This document shows, piece by piece, positions 24,301-63,131 of a stretch of DNA of 64,000 nucleotides (its first letter is position 1; each line of letters begins with the position of its first letter). This stretch comes from Phyllosticta citribraziliensis (taxonomy: Eukaryota). Position numbers and translations under genes: made by a program. Location: NCBI RefSeq assembly GCF_038025025.1, contig NW_027117338.1, positions 2,666,001 to 2,730,000 of the forward strand, written 5' to 3'. The notes beneath the pieces were generated by a model. It was not told where the DNA came from. It was given only the letters and a program-made list of their open reading frames with translations, and did not search any database.

Positions 24301-25208
24301 TAAACTATATATAAGCTTTAATTATAGTAAAGTAAGACTAAAGTTAAAATTAAGAGCTAAGGTATTAGCTATAGAATAGGTAAAATTAATAGAGGATATC
24401 TAGTTAAAGACTTAGTTAGTACTTATATTTATAAAGGAGAGATAAGTATACTAAGCTAATAAATACTAATATACTTATAATATTTAAGAGAATAACCTTA
24501 TCTTTATTAAAGTAAAGTATATAGATACTAGATACCCCTAGAAGCTTAGATAGCCTAATCTAGGACTATATTAAATAGACTCTATAAGAGGTAACTAGGT
24601 AATATTAGACTTACTATAAGATTCTTATATTATAAACTAATTTAATATAGAATAGTTATATTAATATAATAATAGGCTACTACCTAGTTAATAAGAGCTA
24701 CCCCTACTACTAGAGCTAAATAATAAGAGTAAAGAGGAGTAGTATATATAGGAGGTCCTAGATATCTAGATAAATAAATAAAGGGGAGGTATACTATAGT
24801 TTTAGGTTTATTAGATAGGATATCTACCTAATATAACCTAGTAGGATACTAATAATAGCTTATTTAATAGAGTAGCTAAGACTATCCTAGATTAATATTA
24901 GATAAATAATAAAAAGGGACTATATCTACCTAATAGCTAGTCCTTAGGTTAAGGACCTAAAGGGGAGGGGGGTAGTAAGATAAATTAATATAGATAGAGT
25001 AGATAGGTAATAGAGTAGGTATAAGGCCTATAAGGATATTAAGATATAGGGTTAGCTAAACCTTAGTTATATAGTAGTATATATACCTAAGTAAGCTATA
25101 GGCTAAGTTAGCTATAGCTCTATATCCTCCCTACTACTCTACCTTATAATTATTAATTATTAGCTAATTAACTTACCTTACTAGGTACTAATTTACTACT
25201 TTATAATA
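18349..25208 (+). mobile_element. Full-length Ty3/Gypsy chromovirus-type element F (RIP-inactivated)
   Basis: 233-bp LTRs at 18349-18581 and 24976-25208, 5-bp TSD ACTAC, PPT AGGGGAGGGGGG at 24961-24972. De-RIPed motifs: CCHC knuckle at ~19878-19919, RT KPGGGVRFCVDYR at ~21230-21870, YLDD at 22151-22162, integrase MDF at ~23840 and chromodomain at ~24730. Confidence 0.92.
21251..21846. mobile_element. Solo LTR, family S (copy 2, opposite orientation to copy 1), inserted in the RT of element F
   Basis: TGTGGC…CCCACA termini. 4-bp TSD ATAG at 21247-21250 and 21847-21850. Splits the de-RIPed motif VR|FCVDYR. Confidence 0.9.
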
Positions 25209-25976
25209 ACTACTAGCTTATTATCTAGCTAACCTATTACCCTAGTAGGTAATAATAATAATAAACTACCTATTATTACTACTAGGCTAGTAACCTAATA
25301 GCTCTAGGAGTAGGTCCTAGAGCTTATTTAGGTAATTTATAATAGGGGTAATGTACTAGGCTATAAGGTCTAGTATTAATTTACTAATCCTAAGTACTAG
25401 TCTAGTAATAGCTCTCCTAATAACTATTATATATAGTATAATAATATTAAGTATAAGCTATTTTATAATAGTAGCTAGTATTAGGATAATATAGCTAAGG
25501 CTATATATATTTACTCTTACTAAGCTAGTAAGGCTGCTCTAGCTACTATTATTATTATTATTATTAATAATAATAATAATAATAAGAGAGATAATCCTAT
25601 AGCTATCTAGGCCCTACTAGATAGTTTATATAGTATTATAGACTAATAGAGCTATACTATTACTTAGCTTACTACTATAGACTTAGTTTTAGATACTAGG
25701 GTAGTTTTTAAAATATTATTATATATATATTATATATTAGCTTATTAGGCTAGCTAGGATAGCTAGATAGCTAAAGACTAGTTAGTTTATAAGCTCTAGA
25801 AGCTATTCTATAATATTACCCTAGCTTAGATTATAGCTAGCTATAGTAAGCTATTATTAATCTTAGACTAGGCTACTAATATTAGCTAAGCTAAACTATT
25901 ATCTACTCTATAGCCTATAGGCTACTACTAGGGTATAATTTATACCTTAGTATTACTAGCTAGTCCCTCCTACTAG

Positions 25977-26571
25977 TGTAGCACTACTAGTTAGCACCAT
26001 TATTACGGCTCTAGAAAGTTATTTTTAGTATTATTATTCCTATTCCTAGCAGTAATTTTAGCTCTAATATAAGTAAGAGATTAGGCTGGTGTAATAATAA
26101 GATAATAGATAGCTCTAGAATCTTAGGAATTTATAGTTCTGCACGGTCTAGTAGTAATAATAATAGCTAATAAAAGTATAGGTGAGCTTAGTATCTTTAG
26201 TAGTAATAGGAGGTCTTATATTATTAGTATTTTTAATAGTAGATTAGCTAATTATATACCCCCTTTTATATCTACTTATAGAGAGGTATAACTAGTATAA
26301 ATAAAGTCTTTTATACCTAGTTAAACTATTATCTACTAGATACTTAATTATTTATTTATTTACACTTGTTATTTATACCTAAGTTTTATACTACTTAAAT
26401 AATAAGATAATGGCTAGATAGTAGCTTATTTTAGTTAGTTTAGTAGTTATTTTAGTCCTATTCTATAGAGCCTACTTATCTACTACTAGTTACTATCTCT
26501 TATACCTCTTCTAGTACTAGTATTTTAGCTAGCTAAGTAAGTATATTAGTAAGTAGCTAGTCCTACCTATA
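25977..26571. mobile_element. LTR, family S (copy 3, same orientation as copy 2), without matching TSD
   Basis: Colinear with 21251-21846 from TGTAGCAC to TCCTACCTATA. Flanks CTAG and TTTT do not match. Confidence 0.8.
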
Positions 26572-29500
26572 TTTTATAGTATAGCTTCTATAGATTAGGA
26601 GCTTCTTATTACCTAATTATATAGATATATAATATTAGTAGAAATTAGGTAAGTAAAAGGCTCTAGGATATTACTAACTAGTACTATTAATTTTACCCTC
26701 CCCTACCTAGCCTATTATTATATATTTACTATACTAGTTATTATTATTATACTAGTTATTATTTACTTATTTATCTTAAATACTATTTTATAAATACTAT
26801 ATAAGCCATGAGATTAATACTTATAATTTTATAGTAGGTTAGTATATAATTTATAGAATAATAATACTATACTATCTAATTTTAATTAGTTCTATTTTTA
26901 TTAAGTATAATATTATTCTAGGTATCTCTACCTATAAAGTATAGGAGATAAGCCTAGATAATTAGTTCTCTAGTTTTTCTATAATTATTTTATAGATACT
27001 AGATTATTAAGGTCTAATAAGTTTCTAGGATTATTCTATTATACTATAAGGTTAGTAGTTTATATAATAAGTTATAAAGGTAGATTTAGATATAATTATA
27101 TAATAAATTTAATAACCTAACTATAAGAACTATAAGCACTTCTAGTAGCTTAGGTAGAAATAGATAAGGAGGAAGAGGTATATTAGGAGGAGGATAAGAA
27201 AGAAGGATAAGGTCTTATAGTAGTAGCTACTCTCTAAGTAGCTAATAGTAGAGGCCTATAATTATATATAAAGGACTATTAATAATAGTCCTACTACTAG
27301 TAATTAATTTATAAGTACCCTTATAAGGTATAGGAATAGCTTAGGTACTATTTAGGCTATTTATTAGACTAGGAGTACCTCCTATAATTATACTACTATT
27401 AGGAATAGATAGTAATAAGATAATATAGCTAAGTTAAGCTAATTAGCTAATACTAGATACTATAGAAATAACTTTCCCCTAGATTAATAGAGAGTTATCC
27501 TTACTAATAGAAGCTAACTAATATTATATAAGAATAGTTTCCCTAATTTAGATAGTTAATACTAGTACTAAAGTAAAGGCTATAGTTTAGGGGGGATAAT
27601 ATATTATTATTCCTTAAGATATATAAGTACTTTTATACTATAGCTAGGAGTCTCTTAGAAGAATTTATACTAAAGCTAGTCTAGTACTATAAAACCCTAA
27701 TTAGCCTAGAAATTTACTACGGTACTAGTACTTATAAAGATATTTAAGATAGAAGTTTCTTAGTAAGAGAGAAATCTTTACTTACTTAGTACTAGTCTCT
27801 ACTAGCTAAGAGGGAAACTAGCTTAGGTATTATAGATAGTAAGGACTATTATAATAGACTAAATTCTACTACTTATTATAGTACCTATCTAGAGGTAGAC
27901 CCTTATATTACCCCTAGTACCTAACTTACTAGGTATACTATTAGGCTCTTAGGAATCTTACTATATTTCCTAATAAGCTATTATTATAATAGTCCTATAA
28001 AGAGCTATTATAAGACCTAAAAGTATAACTTATAAGTAAAGGGTAATTTAGGTTTAAGGAAGAGAAAAAGGAGGATATTCCTTCTTATAAATTAAAGTAA
28101 AGGTTTATTCTAAGAGAACTAAGAGATAAAAGTTAGTTATTAATATTAGGATATAAAGGGCTATATAAGGACTAAAGAATAGTCCTAGTTAAGGAAAAAT
28201 AGTATAGTTAGTTCCTTCTAAAATAGAAAGTAAAAAGGAGAAGGAAAAGTTAATACCTCTAGTAAATCTAGGGTACTTAACCTAGTTAAGATTTATATTA
28301 TCTCCTTTATATTTTAGACTTTAAGGCTACTCCTTAGAATAAGGATATAGTAGTATTATAGTCTATAGTCTAGATCTAAATAAATTAGTCTAGAAGAACT
28401 TTAATAGTAAGAGTTATAGTTAGGAGTTAGAGGTAATTTATAATTAATAAATAAGTCTTACTAATAGCTAGCTAGTAGATTAGCTTAGTACTAACTAGAA
28501 AGGTATATAAAGAGACCTCCTAGCCCTCTAGAATAGCTTTCTCTTTAGTAGTGATTTTTCTTTTATTAATTCTTTATTAAGGATTATTATTCTTCCTCTA
28601 TATATTTCTTATAACTAAGTATATAATAATTTAGTCTATATTATTATCTATTAGATAGCCTTTAGAAAATAGTCTAAGGTTATTTAGTTATAGTAGTATA
28701 AATTAAAAGGGTCTACTCCCCTTCCTTATACCTCTTATTTAATAGGGAAGTACCTCTCTATTATATAAGCTAATAGACTAGATATTAGGTTATATAGCTC
28801 TACCTACTATACTCTACCTTAGTATTTTATTATCTAGGCACATATAAGCCCTATATAATAAAGGATTAGGCTAGGTATATATAACTATCTTTAGGGGTTA
28901 TTATTTATAACTACTTATTAAGTACTATATCTAGATACCTAGATCTATTAGTTAAATACTAAGTAGCCTTAGTAATTACCTAATTAGGATTACCTAAAGT
29001 ATACTATTATAGCTTTACTACTCCTAGAGAGCTCTAACTCTCTAGTCTATTATTAAAAAGACTTATATCCTATTATTATATAAACTCTATAAGGGAAAAA
29101 TATATAAGTATCTTTTTTATATAATATAGAGGATACTCCTATAAACTATAAACTAGGAGAATATATTAGGAACCTAGAAGCTAATATATAGGCTACCTTT
29201 AATAAATATTAATAATCTACTATAAACTAGTAGATAGAGATGAATAAGCTTAATTAAAGGTTAGCCTAGGCTACTCTAGGTAATAATTATTACGCTTATA
29301 TGCCTCTAGCATTTCCTAGTATTTAGTATTTAGCCTTTACTTCTCCTATATATACTAGCTATACTTAGTTAGTTTAATAGCCTAGGAATAGATAGTTATC
29401 CTATATAGGCTATATAATAACTACTCTTACTCCTTACCTATTAATTATTAGTAGTCTATATTAATTTACTCTACTAGGTACTATAATACTATTAATAGGT

Positions 29501-32327
29501 TACTTACTACTTATAAGAGGATAAGACTTATTATCTATCCCTTACTAATAAGTTTTCTTACTTTAATCACGCCCTATATAGTATTAGGTTAAAATACTAT
29601 AGTTTTAGATATACTAGAAGCTCTAGGTATTATTAAGTTTATAGTCTATAGCCTTAAATAAGGTATATAAGTAAGATTTTAGGCTAAGAGGGTTCTAAAG
29701 GTAATAGAGATATAATATCTTATTATATTATATAGTTAATAACCTATATAATAGCTAAGAGTAGCTAAACTTCTACTAGTAGTATAGTACTATTAGCTAC
29801 TCCTTAAACCTTACTAGTAGCTAGCTACTAGCCTTTAGCTACTAGCCTATTATCTAGCCTATCTATTATCTCTAGCCCCCCTAGAGATAATAATCTAAAC
29901 CCCTAAGTTACTAGTAATAAGCTAATAACTTATAAGCTCTAGTAGTAGATACTAGACCTTATAAAGGTACTTACTACTTATAGTAAAGCTACTAACTAAG
30001 GTAAGATACTACTCTATAAGGTTTAGTACTAACTTACTAATCCTAAATATTTTAATAGTAAGGGTATACTAGAGGACTATTATATCTAGTATTAAAATAT
30101 TCTCTATAAGCTATTATTTAATAAGGCCTAGTTCCTAGATAATATAGCTAAGGCTATATATATCTAATCTTACCTCTTTAGTATAGCTATATATTCTACT
30201 ATTATTAGTACTAAAATTAAAACTAACCCTCTTAAGGTCTAGACTATTTTAGATAGCCTATATAGTATTACTAATATATATAGCTATACCCTCTTATAGC
30301 TTATCTAGCTATATTTAATTTCTAGCTCTAGTACTAGCTTTAAATAGGAGCTCTATATATACTAGATTCTTACTTATTAGGCTAGCTAGAATAGCCTAAT
30401 AAGTAAGGACTAGTTACTCTAAAGGATATATAGACTACTCTAGTTTATTACCTTATTATAGATTATAACTAACTATAGTAAGCTCTTAAGTATTCTAGAT
30501 TAGGTAGCTAATATTAGTAATATACTAGTAGACCTAGGCTTAAGCTCCTATCTATCTAGAAGCTAGGATAAGGCTATAGTTTATAGCCTAATAACTAGTA
30601 CTCCCTACTAGGCTATACTAGCCTTAGGTACTATAGTAAAGTATAAGGCTACCCTAAGCCCTTATAGTTATTAGTATTATAGTAATCTAGATTATTAGAT
30701 TAAGGATTATCTATATATAGACCCTACTAGCTAACTATATACCTTTATTTATAGTATAGTAGTTATAGAAGAGGTTATAGAGGAGTTTATAGATATAGTT
30801 AAAGAGCTAGAAATTACTATTATTAGTAAAGGTAATATTATAAGCTAGGATAAGATATTAGGAAATAAGTAGCCTCCTATAAAACTATAATAGGAGGTAG
30901 TACCTATAAGATAGCTATTAGTTATTTAATATAATTAGGGAATAGAGTTTCTAGTCCCTCTTACTACTCTTATACTATATATATTTATATATATCCTAAT
31001 ATACTACTAAGGCTAGTCTATATCCTTATTAATTCTAGATATACTAGTAGCCTATATATAAGCTAGTCCCTTAAGTATAAACTAGTTACTACTAGTACTT
31101 AGAAGTAGTAGCTATATAAGCCTTAGATAATTAGTAACTATACTTAAAGCTAGACCTAGTATCTTACCTATAAGCTTATTACTAGCTTATTATTTAGTTT
31201 AGTAGACTATAATAGTACTATATTATTTAATCTACTAGCCTTAATAACTATTACCTAGATTAGTCCTATATATAATTTATTTATTAGCCTTAAGTATATA
31301 TACTAGTTTAGGTTTATCCTAGACTTAGGATATATAGTATTAAGTATTAGAGGTATAAATTCTATAAAGACTTATTAGGACTACCTAAGGTTAGGAGCCC
31401 CCTAATTAGCTAGACCTTAGGCTATTTATAAGCTAATTAAGTCTTTACTACCTTCCCTAATAGTATTATAGACCTTATCTATAACCTTTACCTCTTCCCT
31501 ACTAAACTTAATACCTTTATTAATACTATTAACTATAAAGCTAACTCTCTCTTAGACTAGTAGCTAGTTATCTAACCTTTATACCTTACTAGTATTATTA
31601 CTCTTAAAAGATAATACCTCCTCTCTAAGGCCTACTACTATAACTCTAGTCTAGATCCTATATTTTAATAAACCTCTTAATTCTATTCTATTACTAGCCT
31701 TACTATACCTCTTAATAGGCTTTAAATAAGTTAATAAGCTATAATATCTCTACTATCTTAAATCTTATCCCTTAGAATACCTCTACTACCTAATATACTA
31801 TTATTAGTACTAAGGGCTATCTAAACTAGTTTTAGCTTCTATTAAGGAGACTATAAGTTATCTTAATAAGTAGAGTTAGGGCTAGGCTAGCCTATTAGCT
31901 AATATTATACTAATTAGTACTTTTAATACTACTATCCTCTACTAATAGTATAGCTATAAAGCCTACTTAGTCTATATCTTTACTCCTACTAATAAACTAG
32001 AGTATACTAAACTTTACTTAATAGAGCTAGTATCTTATACCCTAGCTAGTAGTAATAAGCTCTACCTATATTATACTATCCCCTATAAGTATTATAATTT
32101 ATTAGGTATATTCTATAATAATAACCTACTCCCCTATACCTATCCTTAGATAGACTTTAAGATTAAGTTAAAGAATAGTACTAAATCTAAAGACCTTAGC
32201 TATATACTACTCTACTATACTAATAATATCTAGTTAGTAGAGATTAAGTATTATATCTAGGAAGGTCTTAACCTTAGTATCTTAGAGTATAGTAAGATAG
32301 GTATAGCCTCCCCTATTTTATTAGTAT

Positions 32328-32750
32328 TGTCACGACTCGCAGATTTCTTGTTATATAGGTAAGGGCTAAAGGTAAACTGCTAGAGAATATATATATGTCT
32401 TAATTAAATCTAATAAGTTAAAAGAATAAAATATAAAAGATACTTACTACCTATATATTTCCTAGTCCTTTCTTTATACTATTCTACCTCTTATCCTTTA
32501 TATAAGGGTCCTTAGTTATTATTAGGTAAGTTATAAAGGTGAGGTATTAATGGGCTGTTATGTGGTATCTACCTAGGGCTGTAGTAGCTGGTACCAGGCT
32601 GTAGTGGCTGGTACTAGCCTGTAGGTTTTAGCCTGAGCTGTAGTAGGCTGCTGCCTAAGGTGAGGCTTATACTTCTTATGACTGTGTGATGCTGGGTTTG
32701 TCTATGCTGGCCCTGATGCTTGCGTAGGCGCGTGTACGCCTATTATGATA
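32328..32750 (-). repeat. Family C LTR in inverted orientation
   Basis: Reverse complement of 37252-37698 (TGTCACGACTC… versus …GAGTCGTGACA), 24 bp shorter. Confidence 0.9.
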
Positions 32751-35563
32751 CTAAGCTTAATATTTAATAAGCTTTCCACCGCATTCGTCTTACTAAGGAT
32801 TCTGAAGATAAAACTACCTTCTATACAAGATATAGCTTATTTAAATACTGTATCTTACTATTTAGATTAAGTAACAGACCTATAGCCTTTTAATATTTTA
32901 TTAACCAGGTTCTCTTTAAGTATTTAGATAATTTTATTGTAGCTTTTATAGATAATATACTTATTATCTCTAAAGACCCTGCAGAGCATAAGGAATAAGT
33001 AAAAAAAGTACTAGTAAGACTATAAAAAGTAGGACTATAGGTAGATTTAAAGAAAAGTAAGTTTTTAGTTATTTATATAAAGTTCCTTAGATATATTATT
33101 TCTATAGAAGGTATTTAGATAGACCTAGATAAGGTAGAACCTATATAAAACTAGCTAATACTAAAAACCCTTAAAGCTCTTTAATCCTTCCTAGGTTTCT
33201 ATAATTTCTACTAATAATTTCTCCCTAACTATAGATAAATTAGCCAGCTATTAGAGAAACTATACTCTAAGGTAAAATAGTAATAACTAGGACCTCTAGA
33301 AGAAGAGGTAATTTAATAACTTAAGAAGCTAATATATAGTAATATACTCCTAGCTAACTATAATCCTACTCTTAATACTTATATAGAGACTAATATAAGT
33401 AATAGAGTTACTACTAGCATTTTAATATAGCTCTAGTAACCTTTATATAATTAGAAACTAGTAGTATTCTACTCTAAGGTAATAGTAGATATAGAACTTT
33501 ATTATAGAATATCTAATAAAGAACTGCTAGCTATTAAGAATAGACTAGAAGAATAGAGACTAATACTTATTAGCCTTAAAAAACCTTTTCTTATAATTAT
33601 AGACTATTAGGTATTAGAGTACTACTCTACTAAATAATAACTTAATTAATAATAAGCTAGATAGTCTAAGTTTTTTATAGAGTTCTATATATAATTCTCT
33701 TATTAACTAGGAAAGGAAAATATTATTACTAATTACCTTACTTAAAAATAAGAAGACCTAAAGACTTAAAAAGAAAAAGTAAAGGCTATATAAGAGATAT
33801 ATCTTATCCTACTAGAGACTATTATCCCTCTTTCTATTTTAAAATAAGAACTTCCTCCTCTAGTATTATTTTTAGATAAACTCCTCTATATAAACTAAGA
33901 AGATTTTAAATTAGAACTCTAAAGATAGAAAGCCCTCTTATAAGACCTTAAATAAAGAAATAGTTAGGAACTAAAAGATGGTCTTTTACTATAATATAGT
34001 ACCCTCTTTATACTAGATTATAATAACCTCTATATAAGAATACTTAATACTTTATATACTACCTATATAACTACCTATCCTAGTATTATAAAGATGTAAA
34101 AACTCCTTAAGTAATATTACTACTAGCTAGCCATAAATTACACAATTAATATTTATAGGTAAGGATACTATATTTACTACTAAATAAAAGAGTTTTATAA
34201 TAAAGACCTAGGCCTTCTATAACCCCTAGAGATTCCTACTTAACCCTAGTAATACCTAGCTATAGATTTTAAAGAGATACCTAAAGACTAAAAAGGCTAT
34301 AATATAATCCTAGTTATTATAGACTAGTTAAGTTAAAGAACCTTTAGCTTACCTTATATAAAGAAGATTAATACTAAAGGAGTCTTTAGGCTCTTTTATA
34401 AATATATCTACTATATTTATAGAAACCCTAAGTCTATCCTATCTAACTAAGGCCCTTAGTTTATCTCAGCATTTATAAATAAACTATATAAGCTAACTAG
34501 TATAGAGCAGCATTTTAACTTATCCTACTACTCTTAGACTAATAATATTATAGAGATTATTAATTAGTATCTTATATAAAGATTAAGACCTTCTATTAAT
34601 TACTTTTAAAATAATTAGTCTAATCTTCTACTATTAATAGACCTTATATAAGTAATACTTCCCTATAAAGCTACTAGACTTTTACCCTTTAAGATTAAGT
34701 TAGGATATTCCCCTTAAATATACTATAACTAGTAATAATAAACTAAGACCCCCTAGTAACTAGAAAAGATGGCTTATATAGTAGTATAAATACTATAAAA
34801 AAGAAGATAAGAAGCTTTTAAATTTATAAAGAAACTCATTCTTAAATCCTAAGAGTATATATACTAATAAGCTAATAAATACCATTATATACCAGACTTT
34901 ACAGTTAGAGATTATATCTATATTAAGAAAACAGGATAGTCTACTAATTAGCTAAACCTTAAATTAGACTTCCCTAATACTAGACCTTTTAAGATTATAG
35001 GAATAGAAGGATCCTCCTATATCCTTAATCTTCCCTTATATATAAAGATAGTTAACCTTTTCTATACTAATAGGCTATATAAGGCTAAACTAGAATAGCT
35101 TCCTAGTTAGGAATATACTAAACTAGAACCTAAGATTATTTAAGATAAGCCTAAGTAAGAAGTAGACTATATTTAAGCTAGTTAAGTCTTATATAGGAAG
35201 CTTTAATATTAAGTTAAATAGACTAGATATAACTAAGATAACTAGTAGTATAATATAAGTTCTTTTAGTAGTATACTATAGAAAATTAAAGAATTCTACT
35301 TATTACACCCTACCATAGTAGGACTACTAAAAAATCTAGAAAAATAGAAGACTACCTTCCTCTAAGAAGAACTATAGATTAAAATAGAAAGTAATAATAA
35401 AATAAGTTACTTAGGCCCATAGTAAATATTATAAAGATATAGAAAGTAGACTAATTAGTTTACTATCTACCCTTATATAAATACTATTAACCTTAACTTC
35501 TACTCTCTAGTCTCTCCTTTTTACTACTTATCCCCTACTTCCCTCTTCTTTACTTTCTATCCT

Positions 35564-36810
35564 TTACTTCCTTCCTTTTCCCTTCTTCTTATTATAACTA
35601 TTATTATATAAGATAGTCTCCTCTAGATCCTCTAGCTTATTAAGTAGGATATCCTACTTAGCTAAAGCCTAATTAGTTTAATCCTCTACCCTAGCTTAGT
35701 AGTATAAGTTCTAGAACTCCTCTATATAAATTTTATCTTTATACCTCTTATAATAAGCAGGCAGCTTAGCACCCTTTAAGTTACTAATAGTATAGTCTAA
35801 GTTACCTATACCTTAAAGGTAGTTAGCGCAGCAGCCCTATAAGAAACTAGGTAGGTAGTAATAACTAATAAACGCACAAGTATTAGTATTATTATAATAC
35901 TTAGTATAGCTAATAGGGTCATTAATTCTAGTATACTAGATAAGAAAAGTATTATATAAGCTAGCTTAAGTTTTAACTAATAAATAGTTAAATTACTAAG
36001 TAGAAACCATAATATATAAGTAAGGTATACTATTACCTAAGGCCAAGATATATTTAGTGTACTCTTATACTTCAGAACTACTAAGGCGCGCCTATATGGT
36101 TAGTTAGATAAGAATCCCTTATATTAGTAAGATAAACTTACTTGTGTAATACTCTCTATATTCTTATAAGGGATATAAAGTATTAACTTAAAGTCCTACT
36201 TAATAGGCGCCTTATTAGAGCTAACTAGTAATACTATAATATAAATCTTACTATTACTACTATTATGTGAAGTAGTAGGTAGTAAGTACTTAGCTACTAG
36301 AACCTAATAAGCCACTAGATTATAATGATGGTATATATAAGTAGGCTCTTTACCTTCTTCCTCTAAAACAGGCTGTATAATAGTAAACTAGTAGTAATGT
36401 AGTATAATGGGCTGGTTAGTAGCAGGCTATATAGCCATAGATAATAAACCTCACGTAATAACTAATAATGCTAATTAAGTAGAACCTAATACTATAGTAT
36501 ACTATAGGTAAAGTGATAAGCCTATAGCTATTCCTGGCTAAATAAGTAAAGCCTAGCCTAACTAAGTCTTTATATAAGTATCCTCCTCTATAATTATATT
36601 AGTTAGTAAGATGGGATAATAAAGTGGTAAAACCTGGATATATAATGCTACTTAATAGCCTAGATAATAATTAGTAATAGTTAGAGATAGAATTAAGGTT
36701 TACTTATCTTAGGACTCTATATGATGGTCCTTATAGATACTGCTAGCTAAAATAGCTCTCTAAGTAAGTAGTAACTATAATAGATTATAAATAATGCTAT
36801 ATAATAATGA
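35564..36810 (-). pseudogene. RIP-mutated antisense, intron-containing gene inside element C encoding a DUF3716/Zn-cluster-like protein (start approximate)
   Basis: Surviving codons GGC TGC TGC GCT AAC (GCCAN, 35836-35822) and TGT GCG TTT. Intron 36141-36092 (GTAAGT, CTAAC, TAG) puts the upstream EEE codons in frame. The frame ends KKKGKGRK* at 35564. Confidence 0.7.
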
Positions 36811-37390
36811 CTTAATACTATAACTCTTATATAATAGTAATAAGTCCTAATAGACTAGACTATAATAAGTAGTAGATATATTAAGTATATAGTAGCCAGG
36901 AATATCTACTTTACTATTAGTAGGGTATAAATTATTTAAATTATTAGAACCTTTATGCATAATAGTTAGTTTACTAGATTATAGCTAAATTAGACTAGGA
37001 TAATAATATACTTTAATAGGGAGCTTTAGATATAGCTAAGTAAGATGGTAACCTTCTATAGGTTATATAGTAAAAGAGATGGTAATAGAAAGAGATAGTA
37101 TAGTAGTAGACCTAGACTAATAATTATACTTTATAACTATATAGAATACTTAAATTACTAAATTACTACTACTATACATTATAAGTCTATACCTATATAA
37201 GCACCTATAGCTACTAATTCCCATAATTTCAGCTTCTCTTTAGGGGGGGCATATTATAATAGGCATATATACACCTATATAAGCACCAGGGCCAGTATAG
37301 ACGAACCTAGCATCGCGCGGTTATAGGAAGTATAAGCCTTACCTTAGGCAGTAGCCCACCTGCTATAGCTTAGGCTAAAACCTGCAGGCT

Positions 37391-37450
37391 GGCACCAGCC
37401 ACTATAGCCTAGTACCAGCCACTATAGCCTGGCACCAGCCACTGCAGCCC
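37391..37450 (+). repeat. Three copies of a 20-bp tandem repeat (GGCACCAGCCACTRYAGCCY) inside the family C LTR
   Basis: Directly visible. The inverted LTR copy (~32576-32615) has only two units. Confidence 0.9.
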
Positions 37451-39372
37451 TAGGTAGATACTATATAATAGCCCATTAATACCTCACCTTCACAACTTAC
37501 CTAATAATAACCAAGGACCCTTATATAAAGGATAAGAGGTAGAATAGTATAAAGGAAGGACTAGGAAATATATAGGTAGTAAGTATCTTTTATATTTTAT
37601 TCTTTTAACTTATTATATTTAATTAAGATATATATGCATTCTCTAGCAGTTCACCTTTAGCCCTCACCTGCGTAATAAGAAATCTGTGAGTCGTGACACT
37701 ACTTATAAGACCTCCCTAGTACTAATAACCCCTAGTACTAATAATAATACTAAACCCTACTACTAGCTAGTAAGCTTTTACTTTATATATATAAAGTTTA
37801 GAAGCTTACTCCTATAGATATTACTCCTAATAATAAACTATTCTTTATATATTATTTACTCTTAGCTAATACTACTAATAATAATAAGATAAATAAGTAG
37901 AGGAGATAAGTAGGTAAGCTAGACTTACCCTTCTTAGTTAATAGGTATAGGAATATCTTTATAGATAGCTATCTTATTATCCTAACTAAATTAAGACCTC
38001 TCCTTATTTAATATATCTATAAGTAGCTACTTACTAGCTATCCTAGCTATACCTAGCTATATAACCTACTTATACCTTATTTTTAGTTTCTATACCTTAC
38101 CTAGTTAATTACCTAAGTTATTAATAACTATCCCTTATATATCTAGGTCTATAAAGCTTACCTAGTAATCTCTAGCTAGCTATAGCCTCTACCTATTCTA
38201 TTATATCCCTAGTAATATATTACTATAGATTTTATAGGTCTACTACCCTATAGTAAGGATATAGATATAATCCTAGTAGTAAATAACTACTTTAGTAAGA
38301 TATATTACTTTATTACTATAAATACCTTAGATAATAGAACTATAGCTAAAGCTATAGGCTATATACTTATAGACTATATCTTTACTATTTATAGTTTCCC
38401 TCTCTTAATTATTTTAGACTATAGTAACTAGTTTATCTCTTACTTATAGGAGGTCCTTACTTATATTATTAGTATTAGTATAAAGCTATCTACTAGCTAC
38501 TATCCCTAAACTAATAGCTAGACTAAATAAGCTAACTAGAACCTTAAGAACTACTTAAGATAATTTATTAAGGTTCTATTAGAATAATTAGAAAGTACTA
38601 TTATCCATTATATAGTTTACTACTAATAGTATACTATATAAGAGCCTTAATAGCTACTCTCCCTTCTATATCTATTATAGCTATAAGCTATAATTTAATT
38701 TTAATACTAAAGCTACTATCTATAATATAAGTAGACTAATTATAGATACTTACTCTATATAATTATAAACTATATAGGCCCTTACCTAAACTATATAATA
38801 AGTTTAGGAAGAAATAAGATAAAGCCTATTAGTTATATAATAATAGATAGCTATCTAAGTAAACTAATATTATTAGGATTATATAGTAGAGCTAGGTAAG
38901 TATATATTTATTTATACTAAGTATACTTATATACTTTATAGCTAGCTAGCCACCCTAGATTACTATAATAATAGCCTATACTATATACTAGATATATATA
39001 GTAATTAGGCTATATTATAACTCCCTATTAGGTCTTAAACCTATAATAAATTTAATATCTCTTAACTTATTATTACTAGTAATAACCTATTACCTAGCTA
39101 ATAACTAGCTATTAGGCCAGCACTCTAAGATAATAATAAGGATACTAAATAGGAGGTTAAGGAAATTATTAGCTACTAGATCTTAGCTAATAGTAGACTT
39201 TAATTTAGGGTCTAATAGACTAATTACCTACTAGACTATATATTTTATAATATAGATAATAGATAGTTTAATACTACTTATAATATTATCCTATAGTATT
39301 ATAAAAGATACCTAGACCTATAACTACCTATTAGCTAGACTTATAACTAAGTAATAAGGTTATTACTTATTA

Positions 39373-39375
<3 letters not shown>

Positions 39376-39405
<30 letters not shown>
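39376..39405 (+). repeat. G30 homopolymer within the polypurine tract of element B
   Basis: 30 consecutive G a few bases upstream of the 3' LTR. Confidence 0.9.
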
Positions 39406-39406
<1 letters not shown>

Positions 39407-39619
39407 GGGGTAGTATTATACTTATATACCTCTAGTATTTCCTAGTATTTAGTATTTAGCCTTTACTTCTCCTATATATACTAGCTATACTTAGTTAGTT
39501 TAATAGCCTAGGAATAGATAGTTATCCTATATAGGCTATATAATAACTACTCTTACTCCTTACCTATTAATTATTAGTAGTCTATATTAATTCACTCTAC
39601 TAGGCACCATAACAGTAGC

Positions 39620-42600
39620 TTATAACTATATAATACTAGGTTTATCTATACTAGTATTATTACTTATATAGGCGTGTAAATGCCTATTATAATATGCCCC
39701 CCCTAAAGAGAAGCTAAAATTATAAGAATTAGTAGCTATAGGTGCTTATATAGGTATAGACTTATAATATATAGTAGTACTAGTTTAGTAATTTAGGTAT
39801 TCTATATAGTTATAAAGTATAATTATTAGTCTAGCTTTATTATTATACTATCTTTTTCTATTACTATTTTCTATTACTATATAACCTATAAAAGGTTACT
39901 ATCTACCTTAGCTATATCTAGAGCTCCCTACTAAAGTATATTATTATCATAGTTAAATTAGCTATAATTTAGTAAACTAATAGTTATATAAAGGCTTAAA
40001 AGAGCTCTACTCTACTAAGAGCAAAGAGAGTAGTCCTTTACTAGTAGAGTATTAGCTAGTTACTTATTAGGATTCCTTACTATTATATAATACTCATTAT
40101 ACTACTCTATTATTATATAGTATTATTTATAATCTATTATAGTTACTATTTACTTAGAGAGCTATTCTTACTAGTAGTATCTATTAGGACTATTATATAG
40201 AGTAGTATTATAGTAAGAGAGTCTATTTTCTTATAGATTATTACTAACTTATTCTAGTTCCTATAGGACTACCTCATATCTAGGTAGCTTTATATATTTA
40301 GGTTTTACTACTTTATCACCCCATCTTACTAACTAAAATAATTATAGAGGATACTAGGGTTACTTTTATAACTATATAGTTAGGCTAGGCTTTACTTATA
40401 TAGCTAGGCTTATTACTTTACTAGTACTATCCTATAATAGCTAGTTCTATAGCATTACTAGTTCTTATATAAGATTCTTTATTATTAGCTATATAGCCTA
40501 CTATTAGCTAGCTAGCTTTGACTATTATTATACTATATTATTATTATTTTACTATTATATAGCCTATTTTAGAGGAAGAAGAGGAAGAGCCTATTTATAT
40601 ATACTATTATTATAATCCTATAGTATATTAGGTTCCTATAGCTAAGTACTTAGTACCTATTAGTTTATATAATAGTAATAATAGTAATAATAGTAAGATC
40701 TATATTATAGTATTACTAGTTAGTTCTAATAAGGAGCCTATTAAGTAGGACTTTAAATAGATACTTTATATACCTTAAGAGAATATAGAGAGTATTATAT
40801 AGATAAGTATTCCTTACTAATATTAGGATTACTTAACTAACTAGTATAGGCTTACTTAGGTAGCTATAAAGTATAAGAGCGCGCTAGATATATTTTAGCC
40901 TTAGAAGATAGCCTACCTTATTTATATATTATAGTTTTAGCTAGGAACTTTAACTACTTATTAGTAGAAACCTATACTAGCTTATATAATACTTTTCTTA
41001 TCTAGTATACTAGAATTAATAACCCTATTAGCTATACTAAGTATTATAATAATACTAATACTTATATATTTATTAGTTATTACTACCTACCTAGTTTCTT
41101 ATAGGGCTACTATACTAACTACCTCTAGGGTACTAGTAACCTTAACTATACTATTAGTAACTTATAAGGTATAAAGCCGCCTACCTAGTATAAGAAGTAT
41201 AGTAATAAGATTTATATAGAAGATTTCCTTAGTCTATATAATTAGGCTATAGCTTAGGATTAGACTAATTATACTTTAGCTAACTAGGATATCTTATAAG
41301 AGGAGTAAGAGGAATAGAATAAGACTATCTTATATAATAATACTCTTATTAAGAAGAAGGGAAAAGGAAAGGGAAAGAAGTAAAGTAAATAAATAGTTAG
41401 AAATAGTACTAAATAGTAAAAAGGAGAGACTAGAGAGTAGAAATTAAGATTAATAGAATTTATATAAAGGTAGATAGTAAACTAATTAGTCTACTTTCTA
41501 TATCTTTATAATATTTACTTTAGGCCTAAGTAACTTATTTTATTATTACTTATTATTTCTATTTAGGGCTCTTTCTATAAGAAGGTAGTCTTCTATTTTT
41601 TAAGGTTTTTTAGTAGTCCTACTATAGTAGGATAAGAGGAGTAAAACTCTTTAATTTTCTATAGTATACTATTAAAAGAACTTATTTTATACTACTAATT
41701 ATCTTAGTTATATCTAGTCTATTATACTTAGTATTAAAGCTTTCTATATAAGACTTAGCTAGCTTAAATATAGTCTACTTCCTATTTAGGCTTATCTTAA
41801 ATAATTTTAGGTTTAGGTTTAGTATATTCCTAACTAGGAAGTTTCTCTATTAAGGCTTTATAGAGTCTATCTATATAGAAAAGGTTAACTATTTTTATAT
41901 ATAAGGGAAGTTTAAGGATATAAGAGGATCCTTCTATACCTAAGATTTTAAAAGGTCCTATATTAGGAAAATCTAGCTTAAGGTTTAGCTAATTAGTAGA
42001 CTATCCTATTTTCTTAATATAGATATAATCTCTAACTATAAAGTCTAGTATATAATAGTATTTATTAGCCTATTAGTATATATACTCTTAAGATTTAAGA
42101 ATAAGATTCTTAGTAAACTTAAAAGCTTCTTATCTTCTTTTTTATAGTATTTATACTATTATATAAGCTATCTTTTCTAGCTATTATGGAGCTTTAGTTT
42201 ATTATTACTAGTTATAATATATCTATAGTAAATATCCTAATTTAATCTTAAAAGGTAAAAGTCTAGTAGCTTTATAAGGAAGAGTTACTTATATAAGGTC
42301 TATAGAAGGTAGAAGATCTAATTAATTTTTCTAGAAGTAATTAATAAAAGGTCTTAACCTTTATATAAGATACTAGTTAATAATCTCTATAATACTATTA
42401 GTTTAAGAGTAATAAGAGGAATTAAAGTACTATTTAATACTAGTAAGCTTATATAGTTTATTTATAAATACTAAAATAAACTATAGGCCTTAGTTAGAAA
42501 GGATAGATTTAGGATTTCTATAAATATAGTAGATATACTTATAAAAGAGCTAAGAGACTCCTTCTATATTAATCTTTTTTATATAAGGTAAGTTAAAGGT

Positions 42601-44980
42601 TTATTAACTTAATTAGTCTACTATAATAAGGATTATATTATAGCCCTTCTAATTCTTAGATATTTCCTTAAAATCTATAGCTAAATATTACTATAGATAA
42701 GTAGGAATCTTAAGAGGTTATAAAAGGCCTAGGTCCTTATTATAGAACTCCTTAGTTTAGTAATAAATATAGTATCCTTATCTATAGATATCTATTATAT
42801 AATTTATAGTAGGCTAATAGTAATATTATTTAAGGAGTTTATATATCTTTATAATACTAGGGTATATAGTTATATATATAGTATATAAAGTATTAAGAGT
42901 TCTTATATAGAGGTTATCTTAATCTAGTATAAAGAGAGTACTATATTATAGTAAGAGACTATTCTTTAATTCCTAATTATTTCTCTACTCTAGGTCTTCT
43001 AGTTAAGCTTATTATCTCTAGGGTTTAGATTAAGAATCTTCTCTATTTATATAGAGAAGCTTATCTAAAAATAATACTAGAGGTAGAGGTTCTTATTCTA
43101 TAACTAAGAGAGGAATAATAGTCTCTAAAGGAATAAGGTATATCTTTTATATAGCTTTAGCCTTTTCTTTCTAAGTCTTTAGGTCTTCTTATCTTCTTAT
43201 AAGGTAATTAGTAATAATATTTTCCTTTCTTAGCTAATAGGAGAATTATATATAGAATTCTATAAAGAATTTAGACTATCTAGCTTATTATTAACTAAGT
43301 TATTATTTAGTAGAGTAATACTCTAGTACTTAGTAGTCTATAATTATAAGAAAAGGTTTTTTAAGGCTAATAAGTATAGGCCTCTATTCTTCTAGCCTAT
43401 TCTTAATAGCTAGTAGCTCTTTATCTAAGATACTATAATAAAATTCTATATTAGCTATTACTTTAGAGTAGAAGGCTACTAGTTTCTATTTATATAAAGG
43501 TTTTTAGAGCTATATTAAAATACTAGTAGTAACTCTATTACTTATATCTATCTCTATATAAGTATTAAGAGTAGGATTATAGTTTACTAGGAGTATATTA
43601 TTATATATAAGCTTCTTAAGTTCTTAAATTACCTCTTCTTCTAGTAGTCCTAGTTATTACTATTTTACCTTAAAGTATAGATTCTCTAATAGCTAGCTAA
43701 TTTATCTATAGTTAGAAAGAAATTATTAGTAAAAGTTATAGAAATCTAAGAAGGATTAAAGAGTCTATAGAGTTTTAGGTACTAGCTAGTTTTATATAGG
43801 TTCTACTTTATTATAGTCTATTTAAATACTATCTATAGATATAATATATCTAAGAAACTTTATATAAGTAATAGAAAACTTACTCTTCTTAAGATCTACT
43901 TAAAGTCCTACTTTTTATAGTCTTACTAGTACTTTTCTTACTTATTCTTTATATTCTATAGGGTCTTTAGAGATAATAAGTATATTATTTATAAAAGCTA
44001 CTATAAAATTATCTAAGTACTTAAAGAGGACTTAATTAATAAATTATTAAAAGGCTATAGGTCTATTACTTAATCTAAAGGGAAGGATATAGTATTTAAA
44101 TAAGCTATACCTTATATAGAAAGTAGTCTTATCTTTAGAATCTAGTATAAGGTAGATATAGTAAAAAGCTTATTAAATATCTAGCTTTATATAAATCTTA
44201 CCCTTTCTAATATATTAAAGTAATTCTAAAATAAGAGGAAGAGGGTATAAATCTTTAGTAGTTTATTTATTAAGCTATTAATAATCTATATAAAACCTCT
44301 ATCCTCTACTAGGCTTTTTTACTACTAGAATAGGATAAGTAAAGGTAGTAAAGCTCTTAGTAATAAAGCCCTTTTAGATATTCTCTATAATATATTCCTT
44401 TATAGCTTATAGCTATTCTAGAGATATTCTATAGAGAGGACTAGGAGGAAGTTCTAGTAGTCCCTTATATATTAGAGATATCTTATAATTAACTCCTATA
44501 TAATAGGGTAGAAGCTTATTTAACTCTATCTTAGAGAAGATATCTTAGAAATCCTTATAATTAGAAGATAATTTAGAAGCTAGTAATTCCTCTATTTCTT
44601 TATCTTTAATAGCTTATTAAACTTATATAAGGTTTATAGTATAAATATCTCTTAGTATAATTTATATTTTATAGATAGAAATTTTAAAAGTATCTTAACT
44701 TTAGAATTTAATTTCCTTAATAACCTATACTAAGGAAAGAAGGTATTTATTAAAGTTTTTATTTCTATAATCTATATCTACCTAGTATTCTTTCTATAGT
44801 ATATTACTTTATATAGAAACCTTTAGTAGTTATAAGAGATATTAAAAGGATTAGTTAACTAGTAGCTATCTCTAGACTAGTTTATATTATTTATAGTTAG
44901 GAAGTATATTATACTAGTTAAAAAACTATTACCTAAGAATTATATTATTCTAACTAATATTATAAATAAAAGTATATATA
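39620..44980 (-). mobile_element. Gypsy element C2, a diverged relative of C: partial 3' LTR, PPT, extra gene, chromodomain, integrase, RNase H, RT and part of the protease
   Basis: Reverse-complement similarity to 32751-37330. PPT complement TGCCCCCCCTAAAG from 39695. Minus-strand AF[VI]DD at ~43985-43998 and protease-like DVILG at ~44932-44946. Confidence 0.88.
40110..41383 (+). pseudogene. Second copy of the antisense DUF3716/Zn-cluster-like gene, in element C2 (start approximate)
   Basis: De-RIPed NAFLIQRxGIDDPVGCTKCxNNxxACAFVGCRRLPGFLQGCCANCLWGxGNLDCT at ~40988-41150. A 47-nt intron at 40803-40849 restores frame; a probable second intron lies at 40213-40257. The frame ends KKKGKGKGKK* at 41383. 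Confidence 0.7.
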
Positions 44981-47900
44981 TATTATACTAATAGATTAAT
45001 AGACTTGCTAAGTAGTAAGTCCTAAGAGATAGTAGACTAGGCCTAGGGAGGGCCTATAGTATATATACCTAAGTAAGAAGTATATAAAATAGTACTAGGA
45101 CTTAACCTTAGTAAGGATAAGGTTTTATCTCTAAATATATCTAATTATCTATTATCCTATTTAAATTAATACCCTATAGAATACTAATCTTATATTTAAA
45201 ACCTTCTCTTTACTATAGCTAAATTAACTTATAATAAAATAGTTATAACTTATAGTTCTAATAATACCCCTACTAACTTAGGTCCCCCCTAGGATAGTAC
45301 TACCCCTATAATAGAATAAGGCTAGGGTAGCCCTTTAGGTACCCTAAGCCTACTAGCTTTATAGAACCCCTCTAACTAAAATATATAGAAAACTTATAAA
45401 GAGAATACTTACTAGGATTCTCTTATAAGGGAAACTAACTTAGCTACCTACTAGGGTAATAATAGTTAGATACTAAAGGAATACCTTTATAATACTAATA
45501 TAAAGATTACCTAGTTTATAATCTATCTTACTAAAATAACCCCTAAGATACTAGAATATAACTACTATAAATATATAATTAAGGTATATAAGATAGCTAA
45601 GGGAGCCCTTAAGGACCTTATAGATACTATAGAGCCTTTCTATATAGGGAGTAGAGGTAACTCTACTAGCTAATAGAACCTTATAGGCTTAACTAAGTCT
45701 AAGCCTAAGAAGCTAAAGGATATTAAGCTATAATCCTTAGAGTACTAATTTATAATTATAGAAAATATCTTTAAAATCTATAATATAATAGGTAATAAAG
45801 AAGCTACTTAGTAGTAGCTTAATAAAGCCCTCCTAGAAATAGAAGGACTTATATAGAAGATACTAGAATAGCTAAATAAGAAACTACCCTTATTATAGGA
45901 GAAGTATAAGTTATTTATCTTAGACTAGCTCTAGAATCCTATACTATTATAGTTTATAATATATAATAACCTATAACTTATAAGATAAGGAGAAGGATAA
46001 GCTTTTAAAGTAGTCTAGGAAATTATTATCTTATATATAGCTTATACTTAGTTTACTACTCTCTATAGAGAAGGGTAACTAGGCCTATCCTTATAGTATC
46101 CTAAGGTATACTAAAAGGTCTAAATTAAGCTTACTAAGCTTAGGGCTAAATCTTATATAAAGAAATTAAAGGATATATTTACTAAGGTTAAAAAGGCTAA
46201 AGAACTCCTTAAATAGACTATATAGATAAATTAAGCCCCTAGGGGCCCCCTTTTAAAGTATACCTAACTAACTACTAGGGTAGCCTAGAGGGGTATATAC
46301 CTAGAGAAGTATTAGAATATATCCTAGATAATAGGTTATTCTAGACTATTACTATCTAATAAGGCTCTAAGCTAGTTAGGTAGGTTCTAGAAGGTAGATA
46401 ATAGTAATAATAATAGAGACTATAAAAGCTAGTTTAATTAGAAGAAGAATAATTTTACTATTAACTAGGGGAAAGGTTAGCCCTAGTTATATATCTCTCC
46501 TTATTAGTATAGCTAGGGCTAGAGACTTAAGAAATCCTACCCTACTAGCTCCTTATTATAGTATAGATAGACTATAATATAGGTATAGAAAGGTACTAAC
46601 TCCTAGCCCTTCTTAATAGATAGACTAACTTAAATATTATAGATAAAAGTTTAGCCTAGAGGCTAGTCTTCCTAAAGGCTAGTCTCTCTCTAGAGTAGAA
46701 ACTATTTAGGCCCTTACTAGCTAATAATTTACTACTTATTATTAGTAACCTATATTTAGTAATAGTAATAATCTAAGACTCTTAGGGGAATTACTAAACT
46801 ATTAGACCCTAGATCTTCTAGTTAGCCTAATTACCTATATAAGGCCTAATTATAGATACCCTATAGCTATATAAGGTAGAAGTAAGGGTAGATTATAGGT
46901 AGATATCCCTCTATTAGAAATCTAATTAAGAAAAGCCCCCTAAGGTAGTTAATATATCTATTCTAGTATATAAATTAGGTTCTAAGGGTTTAGTCTACTA
47001 TATATATACCTTTAGGTTCTATATATAAGACCCTTAGCTAGTAATTACCTCTATTAATAAATAGCTACTAATAGACCTAGGTAGTAAGGATATAAAGATA
47101 CTCTACTCTAGCTCTAGGCTAGATCTAAATAAGCTTCCTAAGCTATACTAGGAGTTCTAAGATATATTTAATAATAAGCTTATAGGTATACTAGTATAGA
47201 ATATATAGTATAATTATATAATTAACTTAGAGGATAATAAGACCCCTCTATAATTACCTATCTATAATCTCTTAGAGAATAAACTTATAATCCTATAAGA
47301 ATATCTTAAGAAGGTACTATATCTTAGCTAGATCTAGCCTAGTAAGTCCCTAATAGGGGCCTTAATCCTTTTTATACCTAAATTAGATAGGTCACTATAG
47401 TTATATTTTAATTACTAAGATCTAAATAAGATTATAGTTAAGAATTAATACCCTCTTCCCCTAATCTTAGAAATTATAGATAGGATTTTAAGTTCTAGTA
47501 TCTTTATAAAGCTAGATCTAAGGGATACCTACTACTATCTATATATTTACTATAGAGATAAGTAGAAGACTACCTTTAAAATATAGTATAGCTATTATAA
47601 GTATAGGATTATATCCTTTAGATTAGCTAATACTCCTACCTTATTCTAGGCCTATATCTACTATACCCTTATAGATCTAGTAGATATAACCTATATAGTT
47701 TACTTAGATAATATCTTAATCTACTCTAAGGATAAGGTAACCTACTAGGGCTATATTAAGAAGGTACTAGAGTACCTCTATAAATAGGGCCTATATATAA
47801 AAATATTAAAATATATATTCTATATAAAAAGGGTAGAGTTCCTTAGCTTTATCCTTACCCCTAAAGGGGTTATAATAGATATAAACTAGGTCTCAACTAT

Positions 47901-59832: not shown

Positions 59833-60143
59833 ATATATCCTAGTATAGACTTATTTCTTTCTTTTCCTTTACTTCCTTTTCTTTCCTTTCTTATTTAGGG
59901 GATATTTCTTAATAGGTAGGGGAGGATAGTAAATTCTAAGTTAAGGATAACTCTATTTTCTTAGCTACTACTATTATAGTCTATAGATAGTTAGGGATAC
60001 CTTAGGTAAGTAAGGTAAGTACTAGCTAGTAGGCTTAGTAGTATAAGTAAGTAGATAGAATAAATAGAGCCCTAGGGCTAAGATAGAAATAATAATAATA
60101 TAATCCTTACTTAAGAAAAGACGTCCTAATTAAACTTATAATA

Positions 60144-61779: not shown

Positions 61780-63131
61780 AGGATAAGAGCTCCTTATATA
61801 TACTATAGACTATATTACTACTAGGAGACTATAATACTATTAGTATAAGAGCTAGAGGCTAAGGAAAAGCTAGATTACTTACCCTACTTAAGATAACCTA
61901 AACCTTAGCTAAGTATAAGATATATATGCTACCCTTATTAAATCTTTAAGGCCTAGGTAAAGGTAGACCTAGAGGATCCCTACTAGAACTCTTAAAACTA
62001 GGCTCTTCCTTATCCCTCTCTTCTTATATAGGTAAAGGATAATAATAATAGTAAAGGTAATAAGGTAAAGGTAAATAGTTAGAAGGACTAATAATAGTGC
62101 TAGTAGAATTATATCTATATAAATAATAGGAAGGACTAATACTAGGACTAGAATACTTAGGCTAATAGGCCTAAGAATAATAGTAAGTAGTAGAAGAGGT
62201 ACTATTAGAGGGAGTAATACTACTATATAGTATAATATATATAGATATAGTAATAGAATATATAGGAGTATATATAGGACTAATAGTACTAGGATAATAA
62301 CTAGGAGTAGGTATTAATAGATATAAAGGTATAGACTCTAAAGAGCTACTAGAGGATCTATTACTACTAGCTATATAAGTTATTAGTACTAAATACCTAA
62401 ACCTTAAAGATAAGGCTTTACTTACCTAGTAAACTACTATCTATACTACTAGACTAATTAGAACTACTAGAACCTATAGGATAATTAATTAGGGTAAAGC
62501 TAGTTATAATAAAGGTCTTAGATTATTAGTTAGTTAAGGCTATACTATAGGCTAAGGGTAAACTTACTAAAGAAGATAAGAGGTAGGGTATAATAAGTAT
62601 AGTAATAAAGATTAGAGCTAGAGGTAGGGGTAGAAAGCCTTTATACTAGACTTATACCTACTAGAGTACCTACTCTAGTATCCTAGATATATAGAAGCTT
62701 TAAGATAACTAACTCCCTATATAGAGCTAAATACTTAAGCCTAATCTATACCTATTAAGGTACTAAGGTATAATACCTAGATAATAAGATTATTCTTACC
62801 TATAGGTATACCTTAGGCTAAACCTAGAGGGGGGTAATATTATAGGTTAGCTAAAAACCTATAATTATATTAAATACTACTTAGTATTAAGTACTAGGTA
62901 TACCTATACTATAACTACTAGCTATAACTATAAGCTATATATACTAAAGTTACCTAACTTTCTAAGAGCTATAGCTACTTAGATAATTTAACCCTAGTAC
63001 CTATATATATAATACTAATATAATAATAGAAATAAGAATAGAGCCTCCTATACCTATAGTAGGGACTTAACTAAGTAATTAGTTTTAAGAAGTATATTAT
63101 TACTAATAAGCTAGTAAACTACTATATAATA
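61780..63131 (+). mobile_element. 3' end of another LTR element (G): PPT plus probable 3' LTR (~62838-63131)
   Basis: AGAGGGGGG at 62826-62834, then TAA and a RIPed TGT-like start TATTATA; TATAATA end. No partner LTR in the window. Confidence 0.45.

Follow-up and report, generated by a model that had tools for sequence, protein, structure and literature searches.

A probable spliced antisense accessory gene between pol and the 3' long terminal repeat of a mutated Ty3/Gypsy retrotransposon family in Phyllosticta citribraziliensis

The window described in this article is a stretch of 64,000 nt from Phyllosticta citribraziliensis (RefSeq assembly GCF_038025025.1, contig NW_027117338.1, positions 2,666,001 to 2,730,000 of the forward strand). 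It contains two copies, C and C2, of one Ty3/Gypsy long terminal repeat (LTR) retrotransposon family, and the region that follows pol and precedes the 3' LTR in these copies probably once held a spliced protein-coding gene on the strand opposite to pol. Positions 1–16 kb of the window are GC-rich (51–60% GC), and an AT-rich block with 23–30% GC extends from ~17 kb to the end. This block is packed with TA dinucleotides, and the listing of open reading frames (ORFs) holds none of at least 50 aa between 34 and 46 kb. Such an AT-rich, TA-laden, and ORF-free block is the hallmark of repeat-induced point mutation (RIP) in fungi. RIP makes only transitions; hence, indel lengths, transversions, and purine/pyrimidine periodicity are used as tests throughout.

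C (32753–37313) carries pol on the plus strand, and C2 (44187–39633) is inverted, with pol on the minus strand. In a blastn self-comparison of the window, the two align with 83% identity over 4617 nt. They are two dead, RIP-mutated copies of one Ty3/Gypsy family. When stops are translated as X, the plus strand of C matches the Pfam families RVT_1 (E=8.5e-14), RT_RNaseH_2, and RT_RNaseH, as well as rve with E=0.0057, which is under the curated cut-off. The minus strand of C2 matches the full RVT_1, RT_RNaseH, and RT_RNaseH_2. Among the matches listed for the C2 pol translation are 78 Ty3/Gypsy polyproteins (best E=2e-156), the named ones belonging to Xylaria, Penicillium, and others. C is broken off inside the reverse transcriptase (RT) at 32753, whereas C2 extends further upstream. 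The chromodomain PF00385, which many pol relatives carry, gives no match at E<=0.01 in the RIPed C and C2, and visual reading of the RIPed pol translation shows a chromodomain-like stretch. Region 37242–37708 is read as the polypurine tract and 3' LTR of C because an inverted copy of the LTR begins within a few nucleotides of the same point. This inverted copy (32318–32750, 84% identical to 37252–37708) adjoins the point at which C is cut, which suggests that a second element inserted there head-on or that the site was rearranged. In C2, the polypurine tract is contained in a 100-nt run (39680–39779) free of transversions and indels relative to C. Just before the truncated LTR of C2, amid unrelated repeat fragments, a run of ~26 G followed by A and GGGG is located at 39380–39409; it might reflect a homopolymer or an artefact of sequencing or assembly. 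The features of both copies are collected in Table 1.

Table 1. Features of the retrotransposon copies C and C2 and of the predicted antisense gene, in window coordinates
Feature	Position	Strand	Remarks
C pol	32753..35530	+	5'-truncated inside RT; Pfam RVT_1 (profile 69-201), RNase H, rve; blastn
C polypurine tract and 3' LTR	37242-37249, then ~37250-37708	+	AGGGGGGG, then ~460 nt
Antisense gene in C	35558..36807	-	Exon C 35558-36091; intron 36092-36141; exon B from 36142; second intron 36660-36707
C2 pol	41410..44322	-	RT, RNase H, integrase, chromodomain-like tail; riddled with RIP stops
C2 polypurine tract	39697..39704	-	AGGGGGGG on pol strand, directly before LTR; counterpart C 37242-37249
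C2 3' LTR remnant	39633..39696	-	First ~64 nt only; ended at 39633 by unrelated repeat; aligns to C 37250-37313; inverted LTR copy starts with it at 32750
Upstream non-coding region	39705..40109	+	Five indels of 1, 1, 11, 7, and 11 nt; transversions flat, 6/8/7
Exon A (5', tentative)	40110..40212	+	No indels; transversions 6/103; phase counts 2/1/3, too few for testing
Second (upstream) intron, candidate	40213..40257	+	GTAAGA...CTAAC...TAG; counterpart C 36707-36660
Exon B	40258..40802	+	Codon position 1 at coordinate%3==0; hydrophobic stretches; EEEEEE 40572-40589; five indels, all multiples of three
Intron 1, predicted	40803..40849	+	47 nt, phase 0; ATAAGT...AACTAAC...TATAG; C 36141-36092, 50 nt, GTAAGT
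Exon C	40850..41383	+	Frame %3==2; conserved core GCCAN/GYYTN 41105-41119; Lys/Gly-rich tail; no indels in 534 nt
Most conserved block of gene	40976..41133	+	158 nt free of transversions and indels, C vs C2
Spacer between convergent 3' ends	41384..41409	.	Transversions 8/26; one 1-nt indel at 41405

The predicted gene lies in a ~1.9-kb segment bounded by the pol end and by the polypurine tract with the 3' LTR, and in C2, it is read from the plus strand, opposite to pol. An earlier note on this DNA had placed the gene at the same element position in both copies and antisense to pol. The shared position is borne out by the alignment of the copies and the opposite strand stands as well, but an overlap with pol does not: the codon periodicity of pol in C2 reaches ~41410 and the antisense ORF spans ~40110–41383, so that the gene lies downstream of pol and the two are convergent. 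Other readings of that note are reproduced, namely a Cys core differing between the copies by transitions alone (GCCAN in C, GYYTN in C2) and intron lengths of 47 and 50 nt that each restore the frame. The spliced distance from the EEE codons to this core likewise agrees, with 486 nt in C2 (41105−40572=533, minus 47) and 477 nt in C (36363−35836=527, minus 50). The promoter of the gene presumably lies in the ~400 nt that adjoin the LTR on its inner side, corresponding to the upstream non-coding region of Table 1 in C2. Its start codon is not placeable because RIP turns ATG into ATA.

Evidence for coding was sought in a MAFFT alignment of the two copies (~4.55 kb), herein counting codon positions in the frames that the earlier note had named beforehand. 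Stop counts per frame were dropped as a frame criterion because the true frame of pol is not the one with the lowest number of stops. Over ~2.8 kb of pol (41406–44190), no indel separates C and C2. Exon B together with intron 1 contains six indels of 6, 12, 6, 12, 9, and 3 nt (within 40352–40843), all of them multiples of three; the 3-nt indel is located in intron 1 and the other five in exon B. Exons A and C, with 637 nt in total, contain none, compared with 6.7 expected at the upstream rate (P=0.0013). The remaining indels measure 1, 1, 11, 7, and 11 nt upstream of 40066, 11 and 7 nt in the area of the second intron, and 1 nt in the spacer. Multiples of three thus account for 6/6 indels in exon B plus intron 1 versus 0/8 in the upstream region, second intron, and spacer (Fisher p=3e-4). 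Expressed by length, eight indels that are not multiples of three fall into ~0.6 kb of flanks, introns, and spacer, and none into the 1.13 kb of exons; between C and C2, exons B and C are free of the frameshifting indels that would have spoken against the earlier note.

Transversions follow the same frames. The exons A, B, and C contain 73 in total, distributed as 15/18/40 over codon positions 1, 2, and 3 (p=4.6e-4), with 5/7/16 in exon B (counted over 40284–40802) and 8/10/21 in exon C. The corresponding counts are 19/5/77 for pol and 6/8/7 for the upstream control region. The strong third-position bias in pol implies that C and C2 diverged as active lineages and not as decaying duplicates. 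Compared with the exons, introns collect transversions about three times faster: 73/1129 in exons versus 21/100 in introns if the second intron is extended (Fisher p=6e-6). The comparison of exon and intron densities proposed in the earlier note, made with its own intron limits, also finds them unequal, with 16/81 in the introns (p=1.3e-4). Individually, intron 1 contains 6/47 transversions and the second intron 10/34, or 15/53 if extended to 40283, and the flanking exons 0.06 per site. The most conserved block of the gene is the second-longest run of the alignment free of transversions and indels; the longest, with 179 nt, lies in pol. The indel lengths and codon-position counts indicate that the predicted extra ORF kept its frame through the divergence of C and C2.

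The coding phase switches between exon B and exon C exactly at intron 1. This intron lies between whole codons, and its two lengths are both 2 mod 3, which is the shift needed. The 5' junction reads CAA/GTAAGT in C and TAG/ATAAGT in C2 (with the slash marking the exon border), followed by AACTAAC and then TATAG/G. The 5' splice site of C2 has lost its G to a G>A change (GT>AT), and the pattern indicates that both predicted junctions descend from CAG/GTAAGT via G>A and C>T. A strict but RIP-tolerant motif, YARRTAAGT..CTAAC..YAG, has three matches in 94 kb (both strands), two of which are intron 1 of C2 and of C; first-order Markov simulation gives an expectation of 1.06 per 94 kb. Intron 1 is hence predicted, with good support, to be a short spliceosomal intron of 47/50 nt in phase 0. 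For the second intron, the motifs named in the earlier note are present: GTAAGA (40213), CTAAC (40244–48), and TAG (40255–57) in C2 and ATAAGT...CTAAC...CTAG at 36707–36660 in C. Its 3' site is ambiguous between 40257, 40266, and 40283, any choice leaving both copies in frame, and the existence of the intron, with 45–71 nt, is only probable. The two indels of this intron that are not multiples of three (11+7=18) are confined to 40219–40271.

Several results weigh against a spliced antisense gene and are given here, in this and the following three paragraphs, together with the alternatives on which they bear. The exons carry 9–15 stops each in the RIPed copies, and neither copy is open. The relaxed intron motif is common (~31 per 94 kb by simulation), as are GTA, TAG, and CTAAC, the latter occurring 142 times in 94 kb. 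With neither an ORF nor a homologue found, the region could be non-coding internal sequence, either regulatory or giving rise to antisense non-coding RNA, in which case the frames, introns, and Cys core would have been read into TA-rich RIPed DNA. This is extremely improbable in view of the indels that are multiples of three inside the exon B–intron 1 region and never outside, the phase bias of transversions (p=5e-4), and the strict intron motif, which is expected about once per 94 kb and sits at the phase change. In addition, the purine periodicity of exon C (chi2 23.6) exceeds the 95th percentile of 510-nt windows in the AT-rich block (21.5).

The strand is read from purine fractions, which are usable on RIPed DNA because RIP cannot change a purine into a pyrimidine or the reverse. 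On the plus strand, exon C shows 0.59/0.60/0.37 by codon position. The 65 intact gag/pol ORFs of metagenomic relatives that serve as control average 0.57/0.51/0.475 (sd 0.03–0.04; position 1 sd 0.026), and ORFs in the GC-rich part of the window have a similar pattern. Read on the pol strand, exon C gives 0.40/0.41/0.63, the reverse of every control ORF. The purine pattern of exon B makes no strand distinction, so that the strand assignment depends on exon C and on the splice motif. Two substitution tests also leave the strand undecided. The first is robust to RIP and looks for an excess of third-position transversions in codons whose second base is a pyrimidine, mostly four-fold families. It performs well on pol (OR 5.8, p=1.7e-10 on the true strand; 1.07 on the false strand) and is null for exons B and C on both strands (OR 1.17 and 1.16, p=0.72). 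The second, a plain count of synonymous to non-synonymous third-position changes, works for pol and gives 8:16 on the plus and 11:13 on the minus strand of exon C.

These strand results bear on a second alternative, in which the extra coding region is a third, env-like ORF in sense orientation on the pol strand, as found in some plant elements and in the metagenomic locus L045. The latter contains a 523-aa ORF3 (6945–8516, plus strand) between pol and the 3' repeat, which belongs to no Pfam family and has no match in the other 79 loci or in the window. Indel lengths and phase bias alone do not give the strand, the phase of exon C equals that of pol in C2 coordinates, and neither substitution test separates the strands. 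Very little probability is nonetheless assigned to a sense ORF. Besides the reversed purine pattern, the pol strand carries more stops (22–24 vs 13–15 and 18 vs 9–12), and a 1-nt indel and the 8/26 transversions of the spacer separate the region from pol. The phase change would need a frameshift on this strand, whereas the plus strand has, in both copies, a canonical phase-0 intron whose length fits. The L045 ORF3, moreover, is without similarity to the window.

A third alternative concerns selection. The earlier note had held that the gene was under purifying selection as part of the mobile unit and was not passively captured. In a passive capture, the retrotransposon would have taken up part of another element or a host gene, in reverse and with its introns, and carried it uselessly, any constraint being residual. 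The transversion density of the exons, 0.057–0.073 per site, is not below the 0.063 of the upstream non-coding region and is twice that of pol (0.036), which is in line with passive capture, as are the missing third-position enrichment in four-fold-type codons and the lack of a homologue in the nearest pol relatives. Constraint is also weaker than in pol, with a ratio of position 1+2 to position 3 transversions of ~0.4 versus ~0.15. The 158-nt core lacks third-position changes as well, which could point to recombination between lineages or a nucleic-acid element, and all constraint statistics are drawn from two aligned copies. Capture of this kind is nevertheless unlikely. The same divergence produced the eight frame-breaking indels outside the exons and zero inside, the five exonic indels all being multiples of three; the codon-position bias is significant; and pol shows that the lineages were active and under selection meanwhile. 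The claim of purifying selection is supported by these indels and the codon-position bias, at a strength below that on pol. Taken together, the alignment evidence disfavors neutrality after any capture and speaks for later maintenance of the ORF, not for its origin.

The searches for relatives add to the points on the opposing side. An hmmsearch with the RIP-damaged exon C profile against 1.84 billion representative proteins gives no match, and neither do word-indexed searches, confined to near lengths, with the exon C and exon B translations of C. Pfam recognizes no family in either exon of either copy at E<=5; a PLDc match to the exon translations (E=0.17) is under its cut-off and was rejected. 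For metagenomic relatives of pol, 80 loci were taken out of 527 confirmed matches. The four exon translations find nothing better than E=0.035 in these 80 loci by tblastn. A flanking repeat pair is found in 37 loci; in 28 of these, the downstream repeat either overlaps the pol match or follows it after <330 nt, and several larger distances stem from contigs whose two ends simply repeat each other. Since these 28 loci have no room for it, the extra gene is not a general feature of the pol clade. A scan for antisense ORFs downstream of pol in 35 metagenomic loci yields no consistent ORF.

Further copies of the family were sought at the nucleotide level. An nhmmer search of the window with a C/C2 profile returns low-score, composition-driven matches on both strands and no third copy, and the stretch is found in no public sequencing run recorded as RNA. 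Contigs of four DNA runs (two studies), placed at 80% likeness, contain hundreds of pieces of the family, with a lower depth over the antisense gene than over pol. Some carry G/C at 41112–41116, like the GCCAN of C. The indels in the gene among those listed comprise a 6-nt deletion at 41366, which is the sole uncompensated indel in exon C among them, and a +1/−1 pair 11 nt apart (40937/40948). These contigs contain no joint supporting splicing. One contig skips 40252–40916 with only 21 nt on one side and was not used as evidence.

All points considered, we regard the region as most likely a formerly functional, spliced, antisense accessory gene of the Ty3/Gypsy family that is now destroyed by RIP in both copies. 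Accordingly worded as a model, the family would have carried, besides pol, a protein-coding gene of ~380–400 codons on the opposite strand between the pol end and the polypurine tract, read toward pol from its own promoter. Its introns would be antisense in the genomic RNA of the element and thus, from general retroelement biology, would not be removed before reverse transcription and could be inherited by new copies. While the lineages diverged as active elements, selection would have preserved an open frame and held back replacement changes, though far less stringently than in pol, before RIP destroyed both copies. The product likely began with a hydrophobic half and ended in a basic Lys/Gly tail, with an acidic run and then a well conserved core containing Cys in between. 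By analogy with the role put forward for other antisense ORFs at this site, it may have been an element-encoded accessory or regulatory factor of retrotransposition, which is proposed with low confidence.

An additional antisense gene, brtn, is reportedly present in Boty-like retrotransposons of Botrytis cinerea, going by the title of Zhao et al. 2011 (Virology 417:248). Elsewhere, brtn is cited as an additional ORF of BcGypsy1 (PMC8365987), and the same 2011 study of brtn is also cited in PMC4227169 and PMC5987419. A review groups Boty with four plant elements, Grande1, RIRE2, Retand, and PvRetro13, whose antisense ORFs lie between pol and the 3' LTR, and its text and a figure legend give brtn this location as well (PMC7264820). 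In these descriptions, the likeness to the C/C2 gene consists of an ascomycete Ty3/Gypsy element (B. cinerea/Sclerotinia) with a chromodomain-type pol and an extra antisense gene. This likeness is one of published description; the searches with the RIP-damaged ORF queries gave no protein matches. None of the 78 listed pol matches is named Botrytis or Sclerotinia, most of them carrying no name. Within the full-text literature searched, brtn is the only named fungal case met.

The plant genes of this position and orientation (aORF-3R for antisense additional ORF; Grande1 gene23, RIRE2, Retand, PvRetro13) are, according to the same review, conserved within families, without database homologues, of unassigned function, and assumed to have an internal promoter (PMC7264820). 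The C/C2 gene agrees with this class in its host, an LTR element with RT, RNase H, and integrase, and in location, opposite strand, and conservation among copies. Since antisense ORFs between pol and the 3' LTR are published, the arrangement is already a known kind. It differs from the plant genes in kingdom and element lineage, in being known from evolutionary evidence in two dead copies, and in an ORF split by what are predicted to be short fungal-type introns; the word 'intron' does not occur in the review (PMC7264820). The sense env-like ORFs (aORF-3S) of Athila and Bagy2 and the ORF3 of L045 resemble it in having additional coding sequence between pol and the 3' LTR and in possible hydrophobic segments. 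Compared with these, the C/C2 gene lies on the opposite strand and has no similarity to the L045 ORF3.

A more far-reaching proposal, which is tentative and rather doubtful, is that the gene represents a family of intron-bearing antisense accessory genes of ascomycete Ty3/Gypsy elements unrelated to brtn. Such genes, possibly with a membrane-spanning first half followed by the conserved Cys core and basic tail, would have been acquired by one lineage only, because most pol relatives with the repeat pair have no room for them. They would have been kept because they serve the element, for example by aiding nuclear entry or by countering host silencing, and their introns would survive retrotransposition solely through their antisense orientation in the genomic RNA.

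Annotations of LTR retrotransposons seldom include extra genes, and the functions of such genes are unassigned. The present case illustrates that RIP-proof signals allow a gene of this sort to be recognized, and the selection acting on it to be measured, even where RIP has ruined the copies. It would also show cleanly how spliceosomal introns can persist in a retroelement by lying on the antisense strand. No major view of these elements is changed by it.

Apart from C and C2, the AT-rich block is a mosaic of at least three to four element families. Repeat families are common to 17000–31000 and 60100–61800, with 29311–30938 matching 61750–60144 at 75% and 25209–25989 matching 61225–60470 at 82%. 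The strongest purine/pyrimidine codon periodicity of the block is exhibited by 18700–20100 on the plus strand (chi2 up to 49, 0.69/0.58/0.32). Its translation with X at stops has no Pfam match and contains a CCHC zinc knuckle-like stretch in which Cys and His are changed to Tyr by RIP; this region is probably the gag of another dead retroelement. Another, different RIP-degraded reverse transcriptase is located at 47404–47854 on the plus strand (RVT_1, E=1.6e-11), ~3 kb beyond the C2 RT and on the strand opposite to C2 pol.

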